The notes under the pieces are model-generated. The model searched no databases. It had not been told where the DNA came from and saw only the letters and a program-made list of their open reading frames with translations. This document shows, piece by piece, positions 6,096 to 12,432 of a stretch of 59,323 bases of DNA. The stretch is from an uncultured Pseudomonadales bacterium. Its GTDB lineage: Bacteria > Patescibacteriota > Microgenomatia > UBA1400 > CG1-02-47-37. Within the stretch, counting starts at the first letter, position 1; the number at the start of each line of letters is the position of its first letter. The stretch lies in NCBI GenBank assembly GCA_964361885.1, contig CAYICL010000001.1, forward strand, positions 1 through 59,323, written 5' to 3'. The position numbers and the translations under genes were made by a program.

Positions 6096-6725
6096 TTATT
6101 TAAATCCGGAAACAAGATCCTGAAGCGTAGCTTCTGGATTAAGAGATTTGGCAAACTCTGAAGCAACCAAGACTCCGGCAGCGCCAGCGAAGAGAGCCTG
6201 GTTAACATGCCGAGAACTACGGATGCCGCCACCGACGATCAACGGCGCTTGAGCAGCGGCCACGGCCTGTTTGACTAAATCAAAGTGGGCGTCAATCATC
6301 GCCACCGGCCCGCCGATTAGTTTTGGGTCTTCAAAACCAATATAGTCTGGTTTTAGCTGATTAACTTGTTTAATTAACTCCAATGTATCTGTAATTATCA
6401 TTACCCTCATTTTACTTTCCCGGCAGGCAGCGACCACAGCTTGAATCTGATCAAGACTTAATTGGTGTTCCGAATGATTGATTAACACTCCGCTGGCTCC
6501 GGCTGTTTTTAGACTGATTGGCGCTTGATAGCCGGTAAACTTGCCAAAGCCGACCGGGTCAGCGTGTTGAGCCCAAACCTCGATATCCGGCAAAGCTTGT
6601 TTGACCCGGAAAATATCCACCGCTTGCAAGCAGGGAATCACCCGCTTGTCTTTAATCAAACGGCACACCTTGATCGTGTTATCCCCGCTGGTTTCCTGGT
6701 AAATCTTAAAGTTTAAAAAAATCAT
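6096..6725 (-). CDS. tpiA: triosephosphate isomerase, archaeal-type short form
   Basis: 209 aa. The blocks LNFKIY, AQHADP..G..TG, VLINHSEH, KPDYIGFEDPKLIG, LIVGGGI and GVLVASEF..LQDLVSGF align block-for-block with archaeal TIMs such as the Pyrococcus type. Confidence 0.85.
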   Translation of the reverse strand: MIFLNFKIYQETSGDNTIKVCRLIKDKRVIPCLQAVDIFRVKQALPDIEVWAQHADPVGFGKFTGYQAPISLKTAGASGVLINHSEHQLSLDQIQAVVAACRESKMRVMIITDTLELIKQVNQLKPDYIGFEDPKLIGGPVAMIDAHFDLVKQAVAAAQAPLIVGGGIRSSRHVNQALFAGAAGVLVASEFAKSLNPEATLQDLVSGFK

Positions 6726-7798: not shown

Positions 7799-8053
7799 AT
7801 GAAAAAAACGTTTTTAATTTCTATAATATTAATTATAATATTAGCTTTGGCAGTATTGTTAAGCGGTCGTCTGGGTAAAAAAACCGAGACCAACACAACC
7901 GGGGAAGAAACAGGCTTAGAAACAATCACCGAAGACGATAGTCTGCCGACAATCCAAGAAGAGTTTGTGGAAACCATTGATGAAGATACTTATTCTGAAG
8001 GTGAGTTAGAAGATTTGGAAGCAGAACTGGACGAAAATATTGAAGAACTTTAA
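7799..8053 (+). CDS. small membrane-anchored protein with acidic tail, hypothetical
   Basis: 84 aa with an N-terminal TM and a Glu/Asp-rich C-terminus. SD AAGGAG lies upstream. Confidence 0.55.
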   Translation: MKKTFLISIILIIILALAVLLSGRLGKKTETNTTGEETGLETITEDDSLPTIQEEFVETIDEDTYSEGELEDLEAELDENIEEL

Positions 8054-9636
8054 AGACGTTGGTGTTGATAAAGTAAACCATCGCTAAAACCATAGCGGCG
8101 ATAGTAAGGTTTGGTGCCAATACTGGAGATAACCGAAAGCTGTTTAAACTTAAGTTTACGAGCAATCAAGACAGCCTGTTGAATTAATTTCTTACCTAAA
8201 CCTAAATGTTGAGTTTTAGCCGACTCCCCCAGATTCAAGGCTTGGCCATAAACATGGATTTCCCGGATAATGGCAGAAGTTTGAAGTTCTTTAATAAAAG
8301 GGGGGGTTTGGAGTAAAGACAGGCGGAGAAAGGCAACCAGATGATTGGTGGGAGTGACAAATTGAAGAAATTTTTCTTGACCGGTTGAGGTTTTATAGTT
8401 AATAACTTTTAGTTTTAATTGTTTTAAAGCGACCGGGTGGCGGCGGATTTCGCGAAAACGGATTTCCTGAATAGTCTGGCCGGCTTTTAAGACGGTGGAT
8501 TCAACCAGCTGGCGAAAATTGGAAGCTTTGTTGCCGCTGACAATATCAGCCGAAGAAAAATCCCGAATCATTCTGGTCACCCGGCAGTAAGCCGGAATCA
8601 AGGGTAAAATTGTGGTTAAAACAGACAGGAGTTGGTTTTGAGTGTAAGGTCGATAAAGACCTTTTTGATAATAGTTAAAGAGTTGGGCGGAGGCAATCAG
8701 GCTGCAAGGGTAGATTTTAAGTTCGTCGGGGCGATAATAGCTTTGGGAAAATATTTTTTTAAAGTCAGCAATGTCTTTTTTGACGGAAGAGCCGTAAAGG
8801 TTAGCCATCCAATGGGCTTGAATTTTAAAGCCGGACAGTCTTAACAGCCGAAAAGCTTTTCTGGTGGCCTGAATAGTGTGGCCGCGGCGGTTAAGCCGTA
8901 AGATTTTATTATCCAAGCTTTGGACACCGAGCTGAACCTTAGTGCAGCCGAGTTTTCTAAGGCGGACAACTTCCGATTGACTGATAAAATCAGGCCGGGT
9001 TTCTAAACTTAAACCAACGCAGCGAGTGGCAGCAGTTTGGTTTTGGAGTTGTGATTTTTTAAGTTGAATCCAGGCAGCTTGGCCGGTGGTTTGGAATTTT
9101 GGTAAAGTCAGTGTTTGACCGGATTGAAAAGCGTTTAAAGCCTGAAAACAGCGGTTGATAAACCAGATTTGGTAGCTTAAAGGGTAAAAAGACCAGGTAC
9201 CGCCTAAAACAATCAGTTCAACTTTGTCGGTGTTATGGCCATTGGCATAATAGGAGTTAAGCCGAGTGATAACTTGGTTAAAAGGGTCAAAACGATTGGT
9301 TAGAGCCCTTTGGGCTCCGGGTTCGCTGGAGAGGTAGCTTTTGGGCAGATTAGCATCTAAGGGGCAAAAGATACAGGTGCCGGGACAAGGATAAGGCTTG
9401 GTTAAAACCGTTACCGGGACAACGCCGGATGAAGTCCTAACCGGTTTAGCCACCAGATCGATCGGGTATTCAAAATATCTTAAACCATTGATAATTTCCG
9501 CTTTAGTAAAAAGCGTGCTGGTGGTTTTCGGATAGCGGCGTAAAACCCGGTCATAAGTCTGGCCGGATTTTAAGGCTTTGATTAGCGGCAAGAGTTTCTT
9601 TTGATGGTCTTTAGGATTAAAATCAAATTTACTCAT
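8050..9636 (-). CDS. elp3: Elp3-like radical-SAM/GNAT tRNA wobble-uridine carboxymethyl modification enzyme
   Basis: 528 aa with the Fe-S motif CPGTCIFCP, the block DKVELIVLGGTWSFYP, and a C-terminal GNAT domain (HLGLGKKLIQQAVLIA..YYRRYGF). This is the Elp3 domain order. Confidence 0.85.
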   Translation of the reverse strand: MSKFDFNPKDHQKKLLPLIKALKSGQTYDRVLRRYPKTTSTLFTKAEIINGLRYFEYPIDLVAKPVRTSSGVVPVTVLTKPYPCPGTCIFCPLDANLPKSYLSSEPGAQRALTNRFDPFNQVITRLNSYYANGHNTDKVELIVLGGTWSFYPLSYQIWFINRCFQALNAFQSGQTLTLPKFQTTGQAAWIQLKKSQLQNQTAATRCVGLSLETRPDFISQSEVVRLRKLGCTKVQLGVQSLDNKILRLNRRGHTIQATRKAFRLLRLSGFKIQAHWMANLYGSSVKKDIADFKKIFSQSYYRPDELKIYPCSLIASAQLFNYYQKGLYRPYTQNQLLSVLTTILPLIPAYCRVTRMIRDFSSADIVSGNKASNFRQLVESTVLKAGQTIQEIRFREIRRHPVALKQLKLKVINYKTSTGQEKFLQFVTPTNHLVAFLRLSLLQTPPFIKELQTSAIIREIHVYGQALNLGESAKTQHLGLGKKLIQQAVLIARKLKFKQLSVISSIGTKPYYRRYGFSDGLLYQHQRL

Positions 9637-10278
9637 ATGGATTTAAACAAACTTAATGAAAAGTTTTACTTAAAAACCCAAGAGTATTTTAACACTTCCC
9701 GGCAGTTTTACTGGGAAGGCTGGGAAAAACTACTGCCTTACCTGCAAGACCTTCAGGGAGAGACCCTGAAGGTTTTGGACCTGGGTTGCGGCAACGGCCG
9801 CTTCGGCAAGTGGTTAGCCGAGCACAAAACCATTGACTATACTGGCATTGACAATAACCAGTATTTGCTTGATCGTGCCAGGGAATCGCTACCCCAAGCC
9901 AAGTTAATCAACCAGGATATCTTAAAACCCTGGACCATAAAAGATAAGTTTGATTTGGTGGCAATTTTAAGCGTGATGCACCATTTACCCAAAATAAACC
10001 GGGCGCCACTGCTAAAGTGCGCTGCGGCACGCTTGGCGCCGAACGGCATCTTATTTTTAAGCTTTTGGGAGTTTAACCGCTCCCAGGAATCCAAAATAGT
10101 TAAAGACTTGGGTGGTAACGACTATATTTTGGATTGGCACCTCGGCGTTCACGCCAAACGTTATTGCCACCTTTATACTCAAAAAGAAATCAACGAGTTA
10201 ATAAAACCCCTGAAATTAAAACTTCTTGCCAACTTTAGCGCCGACACCAGCAATAGATATTTAATCTTGCTAAAATAA
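9637..10278 (+). CDS. class I SAM-dependent methyltransferase, Trm9-like
   Basis: ATG at 9637 (the tracked ORF starts at an upstream TTG). It has motif I VLDLGCGNGRFG, plus FNTSRQFYWEGW, LSVMHHL, FLSFWEF and DYILDW, in the same order as Trm9/ALKBH8 methyltransferase blocks. This comparison is from memory and unverified. Confidence 0.65.
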   Translation: MDLNKLNEKFYLKTQEYFNTSRQFYWEGWEKLLPYLQDLQGETLKVLDLGCGNGRFGKWLAEHKTIDYTGIDNNQYLLDRARESLPQAKLINQDILKPWTIKDKFDLVAILSVMHHLPKINRAPLLKCAAARLAPNGILFLSFWEFNRSQESKIVKDLGGNDYILDWHLGVHAKRYCHLYTQKEINELIKPLKLKLLANFSADTSNRYLILLK

Positions 10279-10282
10279 TCAT

Positions 10283-11083
10283 ATGCCTGAAGAAACCCGT
10301 TTTGCTGATAAAGACCTTCAGCTTTTATTCCGCCCAAAATTTAAACATTTCAAACCAATAAATAATGGCCGCGACCAATTTGGCAATAGATTATTTTCAG
10401 CACGGAAACAAGGATTATATGCGCCTGGTTATGTTGATAGAGAAGGCAAACAATACAAGGCCGTCCTTTTAATATCTCCTGAAGGAGAAAAATTAATAAA
10501 ACATAATCCGGGCATTCTTAATGACATTGATCGAGGAGTTACAGCAATTAATAACTGGGAATCGAGTATTGTTTTGTCGGAAAATCCCAAAAGATCTCTT
10601 AGTAAAATCTGGTCAGAGTATAACAATCGCTTGGCCCGCTTACAATTAGGGGAAAACGAGTATTTATTAAAATGGTTAAACCAAGAAAAATTAGTCGATA
10701 AATACCTTGCCTATCAGCCTTTTATTAATGAAATGCTGCAAGTGCAAGAAGTCCAGAAAAAATTCGGTGAAGAATTATTAAGAGAAGACGTCAATGTAAT
10801 CCTACCAACCTATTTTTTCGCGTCTGGTTTCCTGCTCTGCAAAACTTACGAATCGGGCAAACCAGCTTCACCGGAGCCAAAAATTCTAGAAAGAATTGAT
10901 AAAGCATTATATATCGTCATGGAATATGTTTGGAAGCAAACAGAGGTAAAAGGGTCTTTATGGGAAAATGTTCATTTTGACACACAAGACTGGATTACTG
11001 GAACAATGGTCAGAACAAACAACTTTATTCTAAGACCAGACAATAAACTTGCGTGGGTTGATCCTTTTACTTATTTTAAGTAA
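10283..11083 (+). CDS. hypothetical protein (266 aa), co-oriented 4 nt after the Trm9-like gene
   Basis: Clean ORF. The C-terminal HFD..NNFILRPDNKLAWVDPF is only vaguely kinase-like, so no family is assigned. Confidence 0.55.
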   Translation: MPEETRFADKDLQLLFRPKFKHFKPINNGRDQFGNRLFSARKQGLYAPGYVDREGKQYKAVLLISPEGEKLIKHNPGILNDIDRGVTAINNWESSIVLSENPKRSLSKIWSEYNNRLARLQLGENEYLLKWLNQEKLVDKYLAYQPFINEMLQVQEVQKKFGEELLREDVNVILPTYFFASGFLLCKTYESGKPASPEPKILERIDKALYIVMEYVWKQTEVKGSLWENVHFDTQDWITGTMVRTNNFILRPDNKLAWVDPFTYFK

Positions 11084-11106: not shown

Positions 11107-11625
11107 TTATTTTTTCACCAGATAATGCAATTGAATTGTTTTTCCCTTAGATTGTTTCATCTCGATTAACTCCAGTTTCAATTCAAAAACATCAGGCTTA
11201 AATAACGGAATACCTTTACCCTCGACTACCGGTTCGATATTTAAAATCACCTCGTCGATCAAACCCAATTTAGCAAAAGCAGTGTTTAAAGTTGAACCGC
11301 CGGACAAAACTACACTTTTAAAACCATGCTTTTTTAATGTTTTTAGCGCCGCTTCCGGAGAATTAACTAACTCAAATCCTGGACCAACTTCATAATCCGG
11401 ATTAGTGGAAACCACAACGGCCTTAATGCCTTTAATATCGTCAAAATATGACTTGGGCCAAGTTTTAACCACCTGATGAGTTTTCCGCCCCCAAATCACG
11501 CAACCGTGTTGACGTAAAACTTCTAACCACGTCAACCAACAATCATGGGAAATAAAATCTTCGTTATTATCCTCTCCGGCGATGTAGCCATTTAAAGACA
11601 TTCCCATCCACAAAATTACTTTCAT
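11107..11625 (-). CDS. dihydrofolate reductase-family / RibD C-terminal domain reductase
   Basis: ATG at 11625 (the upstream start of the tracked ORF is GTG). The block MKVILWMGMSLNGYIAG..VIWGRKTH..VVLSGGSTLN is typical of RibD_C-like proteins. Confidence 0.7.
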   Translation of the reverse strand: MKVILWMGMSLNGYIAGEDNNEDFISHDCWLTWLEVLRQHGCVIWGRKTHQVVKTWPKSYFDDIKGIKAVVVSTNPDYEVGPGFELVNSPEAALKTLKKHGFKSVVLSGGSTLNTAFAKLGLIDEVILNIEPVVEGKGIPLFKPDVFELKLELIEMKQSKGKTIQLHYLVKK

Positions 11626-11630
11626 AAATC

Positions 11631-11996
11631 TTATTTTACTACCCACCACTGTTTAAATAAGGTACACAAACCCTGGCGGTTTAATTGAACTAAAAAGATG
11701 CCATCAAGCACGACTTTTTTATTTTCTTTTTTCCGGGTAAATTCTGCCGACCATTGAGCCAGACCAAATTGTTTGGTAACTACTAAAATGCGATAATTAA
11801 ATTTAATGTCTTTTTGAGTTTGCGGGACTTCCTGCCATAATTTTTTGACTGCCTCCGGGCTTTTATATGGTTTGGTAAAAGGCGTTTCATGATAAACCAC
11901 ATTTTTGGCGCAAATATCAGCAATGATCTGCGGATTTTTCTCCATCCAAGCTCGGCCTAATTGTTTTAGCCAATGATCAAATTGTTTTTTGGTCAT
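11631..11996 (-). CDS. NTF2/SnoaL-like fold protein, hypothetical
   Basis: 121 aa. Its size and pattern (..VVYHETPF..WSAEF..DGIFLVQLN..) resemble SnoaL-like proteins. The call is weak. Confidence 0.4.
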   Translation of the reverse strand: MTKKQFDHWLKQLGRAWMEKNPQIIADICAKNVVYHETPFTKPYKSPEAVKKLWQEVPQTQKDIKFNYRILVVTKQFGLAQWSAEFTRKKENKKVVLDGIFLVQLNRQGLCTLFKQWWVVK

Positions 11997-12432
11997 ATTC
12001 TTTAATAAATAATTTTATTGTTTCTAAATGATCAAAGGCAAAATCTTTTTGAGGAGGGAGATTATCCAAATCAAACCACTTGACCCCAGCAATTTCGTCG
12101 TCGGAGCCACCGATTTTTTTTAAGGGTTTAACTAAATAGAAAAAGGAAACATTCTGCCGGTCTTCGTGGCGTCGCTGAGGATTATCGACAATCCGAAATA
12201 ATTTAATTATCTTACCGCTATAACCGGTTTCTTCTTGGAGTTCGCGCAAGACGGCTTGCTCGATGGTTTCGTTCCTATCCAAAAAGCCGCCGGGCAGGGC
12301 CCATTTGTTGGGTTCTGAATATTTAGGCCCGCGTTTAACTAAAAGAATTTGGTTATCTTTCACCACCAGCATGTCGATAACTACATGGCGCAAAGAGGTT
12401 TTATGGCTATTTTCAAAATAACAGGTAATCAT
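11977..12432 (-). CDS. NUDIX hydrolase
   Basis: Nudix box GGFLDRNETIEQAVLRELQEETGY. Confidence 0.88.
   Translation of the reverse strand: MITCYFENSHKTSLRHVVIDMLVVKDNQILLVKRGPKYSEPNKWALPGGFLDRNETIEQAVLRELQEETGYSGKIIKLFRIVDNPQRRHEDRQNVSFFYLVKPLKKIGGSDDEIAGVKWFDLDNLPPQKDFAFDHLETIKLFIKEYDQKTI

Follow-up and report, generated by a model that had tools for sequence, protein, structure and literature searches.

Results

A divergent Elp3-methyltransferase gene pair predicted to modify wobble uridines

In the genome of an uncultured bacterium of the Patescibacteria, a member of the candidate phyla radiation (CPR), the gene of the radical S-adenosylmethionine (SAM) enzyme Elp3 was found head-to-head with the gene of a Trm9-like methyltransferase, and the resulting module most likely makes 5-methoxycarbonylmethyluridine or its 2-thio derivative at the tRNA wobble position (mcm5(s2)U34) in place of the MnmE-MnmG route. 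This reading, drawn from sequence comparison, is given a probability of about 0.7. The stretch of DNA analysed (hereafter the window) is contig CAYICL010000001.1 of assembly GCA_964361885.1, with a length of 59,323 nucleotides. The source genome comprises 727 kb in 55 contigs and is about 91% complete, and the nearest named proteins are those of Candidatus Beckwithbacteria.

The two divergent genes are proposed to make up a self-sufficient module for tRNA wobble uridines, of the archaeal/eukaryotic type. The radical-SAM and acetyl-CoA-binding domains of Elp3 would carboxymethylate U34 at C5, yielding 5-carboxymethyluridine (cm5U), and the Trm9-family methyltransferase would esterify the cm5U carboxyl with the methyl group of SAM to give mcm5U34. 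A bacterial-type thiolase, MnmA, encoded elsewhere, could add the 2-thio group (s2) to yield mcm5s2U34 on some tRNAs. The Elp3-methyltransferase module would in this way stand in for the missing MnmE and MnmG, and the methyltransferase would probably work without a Trm112 partner, unlike the eukaryotic and Haloferax Trm9 enzymes.

A first-pass annotation of the window had proposed this gene pair, together with a third open reading frame (ORF3). The ORF coordinates, the abutting ATG codons within a CATATG hexamer and the 4 nt between the methyltransferase stop codon and the ATG of ORF3 were all found as it had described them (Table 1).

The 528-aa protein is assigned to Elp3

The assignment of the 528-aa protein as a true Elp3, also made in that annotation, was upheld. 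The NCBIfam model of Elp3 (TIGR01211) gave 457.1 bits against a cut-off of 350, with residues 61-526 corresponding to positions 55-520 of the 522 in the model, a match that spans both the radical-SAM and the GNAT/KAT domains. The best PDB relatives were the archaeal MinElp3 (6IAZ, 3e-91) and the bacterial DmcElp3 (5L7J, 2e-87), the yeast, human and mouse Elp3 structures matched at about 1e-76, and MinElp3, DmcElp3 and yeast Elp3 could each be aligned with the protein from end to end.

The catalytic motifs are kept. The radical-SAM 4Fe-4S cysteines (C84-x3-C88-x2-C91, in CPGTCIFC) are aligned to CPhGKCIFC of MinElp3, and the same cysteine motif was observed in 39 other methyltransferase-linked Elp3 homologues, namely those with this region aligned. 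The acetyl-CoA motif (Q476-HLGLG, of the form Q/R-x-x-G-x-G) is intact, and the KAT domain has its C-terminal Tyr-Tyr (Y511-Y512-RRYG). In the region of residues 386-397, the window protein reads IQEIRF versus CRCIRC in MinElp3. Of the 41 methyltransferase-linked bacterial homologues with the region aligned, 38 do not have these MinElp3-type cysteines, which were kept only in three loci (L010, L027 and L051); their absence is not disqualifying for Elp3 identity, because eukaryotic Elp3 likewise has no such cysteines. Judged by its sequence, the protein is a genuine Elp3 with intact catalytic motifs, and its catalysis is predicted. An identity of the MnmL/YtqA (YhcC) type was rejected, as TIGR01212 reached 60 bits against a cut-off of 180, compared with the 457 bits of the Elp3 model, and a GNAT domain is present.

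The methyltransferase carries most functional residues of Trm9

A relationship of the methyltransferase to Trm9 and ALKBH8 had been suggested in the first-pass annotation from a series of motifs. Four of them (VLDLGCGNG, SVMHHL, FLSFWEF and DYILDW) are present as given, and the first reads F-x-T-S-R-x3-W instead of having the two-residue spacing that was claimed. The relationship itself was supported by profile search of the PDB and by the catalytic residues. In a single-sequence PDB search, Trm9 of Yarrowia lipolytica (5CM2_Z) ranked second (1.2e-7), with an alignment extending to the C-terminal 'D.....W ... RY.HLY..EI' region. With a family profile (A1) built from 21 diverse members, the same structure ranked first (8e-15, 57.9 bits, profile positions 48-218), followed by a match (2.5e-11, 46.5 bits) whose main stretch covers the SAM core only (positions 49-152). 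Among the three printed profile-PDB alignments, that to Trm9 was the sole one running through the C-terminal substrate-binding half.

Alanine mutants of R29, D72, H116, W145, W168, R241, Y243 and N271 impair the activity of Saccharomyces cerevisiae Trm9 (ScTrm9) (Letoquart et al., PMC4678810). Seven of these eight functional residues were found to be invariant in an alignment of the 21 diverse family members, the counterparts in the window protein being R22, D72, H116, W144, W167, R175 and N206 for ScTrm9 R29, D72, H116, W145, W168, R241 and N271, respectively. The counterparts R22 and N206 were set by motif spacing, since both lie outside the crystal construct and the HMMER alignment. H115 (ScTrm9 H115) and Y11 (ScTrm9 Y18) are also invariant in the family. 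By profile and catalytic residues, the methyltransferase is Trm9-like. Several of its homologues are labelled 'tRNA (uracil-5-)-methyltransferase TRM9' by JGI.

The Pyrococcus horikoshii protein PH0226 (PDB 1VE3) was aligned to the family profile over positions 16-194 and may be a Thermococcales relative of the methyltransferase family.

Linkage and distribution of the two genes

To describe the distribution of the pair, 201 evenly sampled Patescibacteria genomes were searched, with Elp3 called above its curated cut-off and the methyltransferase at E <= 1e-25. Elp3 was detected in 85 genomes and the methyltransferase in 65; for this phylum, the Elp3 frequency is at odds with the earlier statement of its rarity in bacteria. 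The two occurred together in 64 genomes (Fisher p ~1e-32), 51 of which have adjacent divergent pairs, and the pairing is strongly conserved. When 20 'Elp3-only' loci were viewed by hand, two further adjacent divergent methyltransferases were recognized.

The best 80 methyltransferase loci from a family-profile scan of one genome per prokaryotic species span Patescibacteria, Anaerolineae and other Chloroflexota, metagenome-assembled genomes (MAGs) labelled Myxococcales/Deltaproteobacteria, Acidobacteriota, and Limisphaerales. By tblastn, 44 of the 80 loci have Elp3 no more than 6 kb away, upstream and divergent in all but two, and these linked loci include Anaerolineae as well as MAGs labelled Myxococcales/Deltaproteobacteria, Acidobacteriota and Limisphaerales. 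The head-to-head layout persists over several phyla at 33-40% identity. A precedent for the clustering of Elp3 and Trm9 genes is known from Sulfolobus (PMC5372719).

A departure from the head-to-head rule was observed in five genomes of one family (f15: G035, G060, G084, G107 and G184), each of which carries two Trm9-like methyltransferase copies with Elp3 on another contig. These are larger Patescibacteria, with genomes of 0.9-1.6 Mb that are 84-88% complete.

Absence of the MnmE-MnmG route

The presence or absence of mnmE and mnmG had been named in the first-pass annotation as a check on the pathway. MnmG was not found in the source genome (an assembly about 91% complete), and the search for MnmE returned GTPase-domain matches only. 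Among the 201 Patescibacteria genomes, MnmG was present in 11, none of which carries Elp3 (p = 0.002). MnmA is present in the source genome on contig 11 (289 bits), cut by the contig end.

A role like that of CmoM, the mcmo5U34 methyltransferase, which depends on CmoA and CmoB for cmo5U, was rejected for the methyltransferase. The model NF008264 gave 20.9 bits against a cut-off of 366, and CmoB was not found in the source genome, where the best match reached 22.6 bits against a cut-off of 275; the absence of CmoB therefore argues against such a role.

Alternative explanations and opposing evidence

Several observations weigh against mcm5(s2)U34 synthesis by the pair and are considered here together with two other explanations of the methyltransferase. 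In Pfam and NCBIfam, the methyltransferase matched class I SAM methyltransferase domains of a generic kind only, and its top NCBIfam score was that of UbiG, with 52 bits against a cut-off of 103. The AlphaFold2 (AF2) model of the protein has a predicted local distance difference test (pLDDT) value of 92, and Foldseek searches with it placed 5CM2_Z third (E 3.9e-13, template modelling (TM) scores 0.67/0.76); the first rank was taken by the uncharacterised Pyrococcus PH0226, with dozens of class I methyltransferases close in score. With the predicted model, Foldseek does not set Trm9 apart from the rest of the class I methyltransferases. As for linkage, no Elp3 was found within 6 kb in 36 of the 80 methyltransferase loci, about 8 of which are too short to tell, and about 19 of the 85 Elp3-bearing CPR genomes seem to be without the methyltransferase.

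The adjacency could accordingly be regulatory or historical only, with a small-molecule or other methyltransferase sharing a bidirectional promoter region with Elp3. Beyond generic domains, the curated libraries gave weak UbiG-, Tam- and BioC-like scores only, and some family members are located away from Elp3, both of which speak for this reading. This explanation is nevertheless very improbable, given that all curated small-molecule methyltransferase models scored far under their cut-offs, that Elp3 was present in 64 of the 65 methyltransferase-bearing CPR genomes with the layout retained at the low identity stated above, and that the family is single-copy in the source genome (1e-92, the next methyltransferase at 1e-11).

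Alternatively, the methyltransferase may be tied to Elp3 and act on another atom of the Elp3 product, on another position of the anticodon loop, or on Elp3 itself. Linkage proves a common process and not mcm5U chemistry, and the sequence is only about 23% identical to that of Trm9. The eighth functional residue of Trm9, Y243, is not kept, being C177 in the window protein and Cys, Ile or Val across the family. Trm112 is also missing. Eukaryotic and Haloferax Trm9 need Trm112, and the search for such a partner, as recommended in the first-pass annotation, came out negative: no match to PF03966 was obtained in the source genome, with a model of only 40 positions and a genome 91% complete. Among the 201 genomes, PF03966 was above its cut-off in seven, in all cases inside ORFs of 200-760 aa, and only two of the seven carry the methyltransferase. 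Trm112 was thus not found with the enzyme, although an obligate Trm112 partner is a defining trait of Trm9, and the methyltransferase is best regarded as Trm9-like and probably stand-alone. Set against this, the Trm9 residues by which the carboxylate of cm5U and the uracil ring are positioned (the R29/H116 pair, W145, R241 and N271) are all invariant, and an activity of the methyltransferase other than mcm5U formation is regarded as unlikely.

The tRNA complement also counts against mcm5(s2)U34 as the product. With Aragorn, 22 tRNA genes were detected in the 727-kb assembly, and the U34 tRNAs among them are Arg-UCG, Leu-UAG and Ser-UGA, none of them a classic substrate of mcm5(s2)U modification. 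Genes for Glu, Phe, Tyr, His, Asn and Ile tRNAs, and for Lys-UUU and Gln-UUG, were not found in this 91%-complete assembly. With only three U34 tRNAs and no classic substrate among them, the targets of the module therefore cannot be named. Many tRNA genes must lie in unassembled regions, and the absences reported for this incomplete genome, those of MnmG and Trm112 included, are not absolute. Finally, direct evidence for bacterial xcm5U is lacking according to a 2020 review (PMC7663514).

A shared start-codon junction

Table 1. Features of the Elp3-methyltransferase locus, with positions counted from the first letter of the window
Feature	Position	Strand	Description
Elp3 ORF	8050-9636	-	528 aa; radical-SAM + GNAT/KAT; predicted tRNA U34 carboxymethyl (cm5U) synthase
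Trm9-family class I SAM methyltransferase ORF	9637-10278	+	213 aa from ATG; predicted cm5U34 to mcm5U34 carboxyl methyl-esterase
ORF3	10283-11083	+	266 aa; uncharacterised family
CATATG hexamer	9634-9639		both start codons abut; intergenic DNA = 0
Methyltransferase codons 1-30	9637-9726	-	excess synonymous conservation; candidate Elp3 promoter and 5' leader site
Extended -10-like TGTTAAAAT	9694-9686	-	inside methyltransferase 5' end; read by eye
TAAAAT, -10-like hexamer	9618-9623	+	14 nt before methyltransferase ATG, inside Elp3 codons 5-7; read by eye

The ORF listing offers an alternative upstream TTG at 9601 for the methyltransferase. On the comparison of homologues, the start is the ATG at 9637, because 21 diverse homologues all begin with 'MD...LN.LN..FY'. 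The same CATATG junction was observed in the relatives L003, L086/L087 (GCA_026397255.1) and L111. In the first of these, a Beckwithbacteria MAG (JAZDKF01), Elp3 is 61% and the methyltransferase 77% identical to the window proteins. In other lineages, 11-250 bp separate the Elp3 and methyltransferase matches.

Because the start codons abut, each promoter would lie in the first codons of the other gene, or the mRNAs would be nearly leaderless. The first-pass annotation had held that each promoter must be inside the partner gene; this is a reasonable inference, backed by synonymous-site conservation, to which near-leaderless transcripts are added as a second possibility. Over methyltransferase codons 1-30, the same codon was used at 19 of 24 and 22 of 26 identical residues, versus 47% in the remainder of the gene (p = 0.003 and 0.0004, the two comparisons not being independent), and no such excess was observed over the first 30 codons of Elp3. 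The excess fits a non-coding signal in the 5' end of the methyltransferase gene, which could be the promoter or leader of Elp3. The TAAAAT hexamer before the methyltransferase ATG is kept in L003 and L086. No Shine-Dalgarno sequence was found before either ATG, and a consensus promoter scan gave no full sigma-70 site near the junction; the promoter positions inside the partner genes are candidates.

The DNA identity between window positions 9283-11083 and L111 (a Logan contig of 2469 bp) is mosaic: the 5' end of Elp3 and the junction are 90-99% identical, the value drops to 49-64% for the 3' two-thirds of the methyltransferase, and ORF3 reaches 61-81% (mostly 70-80%). The pattern is suggestive of recombination within the methyltransferase gene or of chimerism of the metagenome contig.

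ORF3 and neighbouring genes

ORF3 is probably co-transcribed with the methyltransferase, judging from the 4-nt spacer, and had been put forward as a possible third component of the pathway. A system of Elp3, methyltransferase and ORF3 might operate in the lineage of the window, with ORF3 extending the modification or replacing Trm112 as an adaptor. In a word-indexed search, seven relatives of ORF3 were obtained, and the three closest homologues (69-77% identity) lie on four short metagenome contigs, each 4 nt after the end of a gene fragment matching the methyltransferase; one of the four contigs holds the entire Elp3-methyltransferase-ORF3 arrangement. This constant spacing among close relatives speaks for a joint role. 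ORF3 is nonetheless absent from L086 and L003, the Beckwithbacteria with the same junction, and from all 80 methyltransferase loci of the wider scan, and so the general third component did not hold up beyond close relatives. In GCA_026397255.1 (L086 5001-6067), a NUDIX gene directly follows the methyltransferase. In the window it lies 1.7 kb further on, the extra genes of this lineage being ORF3, a RibD_C-like gene (11107-11649) and a SnoaL-like gene (11631-11996).

The more distant relatives of ORF3 point in other directions. Those at 33-36% identity adjoin LysE-type exporters near resolvase, HNH, terminase or toxin-antitoxin genes; in two distant members, at L088 and on the JGI contig of P0126, such an exporter comes after the ORF3 homologue. 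An exhaustive profile search gave about 185 cluster representatives of the family at 50% identity, two of which (P0153 and P0157) are fused to a C-terminal NUDIX domain. ORF3 had no match in Pfam, NCBIfam, PHROG, PADLOC or, as a single sequence, the PDB, and a 41-member profile found no Pfam or PDB relative; similarity to Trm112 or to any known family was not detectable, and its AF2 model is poor (pLDDT 49). A three-component system is consequently considered highly unlikely, and on the distribution described, ORF3 is a clade-restricted passenger and not a conserved third component. A kinase-like catalytic-loop reading of its C-terminal 'N-N-F-I-L...W-V-D-P-F' was dropped, with nothing in its support.

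The NUDIX gene near ORF3 occupies 11977-12432 on the minus strand. Three genes upstream of Elp3, a short triosephosphate-isomerase-like (TIM) gene (209 aa) was observed at 6096-6725 on the minus strand. Synteny with GCA_026397255.1 comprises TIM, a small ORF, two small plus-strand ORFs, Elp3 and the methyltransferase.

Discussion

In the literature, Trm9 and wobble modifications of the mcm5U type count as eukaryotic and, from 2018 on, also as archaeal. HvoTrm9-Trm112 of Haloferax volcanii makes mcm5U (PMC6144793), and according to a 2017 review, bacterial genomes have no detectable homologues of Trm112-dependent methyltransferases (PMC5372719). Among bacteria, Elp3 is known from Dehalococcoides (PMC6367351, PMC7663514), and a 2026 paper refers to 'numerous bacteria' (PMC13315578). 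A full-text literature search returned no paper describing a bacterial Elp3-Trm9 pair, or Elp3 in CPR tRNA modification. What this analysis adds is a set of phylum-wide counts, the mutual exclusion of Elp3 and MnmG, the missing Trm112 and the conserved zero-gap junction.

On a wider scale, the balance tilts slightly towards about 40% of the sampled Patescibacteria, together with lineages within Chloroflexota and other phyla, using Elp3, a Trm112-independent Trm9 and MnmA for mcm5(s2)U instead of MnmE/MnmG. If this is true, mcm5U would be a modification common to life's three domains, and a major bacterial radiation would decode split codon boxes with 'non-bacterial' chemistry. The stand-alone bacterial Trm9 would then be the minimal version of an enzyme for which Trm112 has been regarded as necessary, and the small Trm112-free Trm9 and the full-length stand-alone Elp3 would offer simpler models of enzymes linked to human disease. 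The pair also bears on the origin of the Elp3 route, which may be ancestral or transferred between domains.

Comparison with known systems

DmcElp3 (Dehalococcoides mccartyi, 5L7J), MinElp3 (6IAZ) and the window Elp3 all stand alone, without Elp1, 2, 4, 5 and 6, and have the same radical-SAM and KAT architecture, with matches of 1e-87 to 1e-91. The window protein differs from DmcElp3 in having about 60 residues N-terminal to the region aligned with the solved archaeal and bacterial structures, and from MinElp3 in its canonical CX3CX2C cluster motif, which is CX4CX2C in the archaeal enzyme.

The MnmE-MnmG system (with MnmC) has the same target, C5 of the wobble uridine, the same decoding role and the same thiolase, MnmA, as the module predicted here. 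The enzymes are unrelated, and MnmE-MnmG uses FAD, folate and GTP with glycine or ammonium, whereas the Elp3 route uses radical SAM with acetyl-CoA. MnmE-MnmG is absent here and, in the 201-genome sample, mutually exclusive with Elp3.

The closest parallels of the methyltransferase are Trm9-Trm112 (S. cerevisiae; Yarrowia 5CM2), the ALKBH8 domain with TRMT112, and HvoTrm9-Trm112, which have the same class I SAM methyltransferase fold. Common to these and the window protein are the N-terminal F-x2-(S/T)-R-x3-W helix, a cm5U pocket lined by the HH motif, by two tryptophans, by the R-Y motif and by a C-terminal Asn, and a place downstream of Elp3 in the pathway. The window protein differs in its bacterial host, in its identity of about 23%, in the unconserved counterpart of Y243, in the absence of the insertions of yeast Trm9 and in a gene fixed head-to-head with elp3, and Trm112 domains do not co-occur with its family across the phylum. 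The pair is apparently a bacterial, Trm112-independent member of the Elp3-Trm9 systems.

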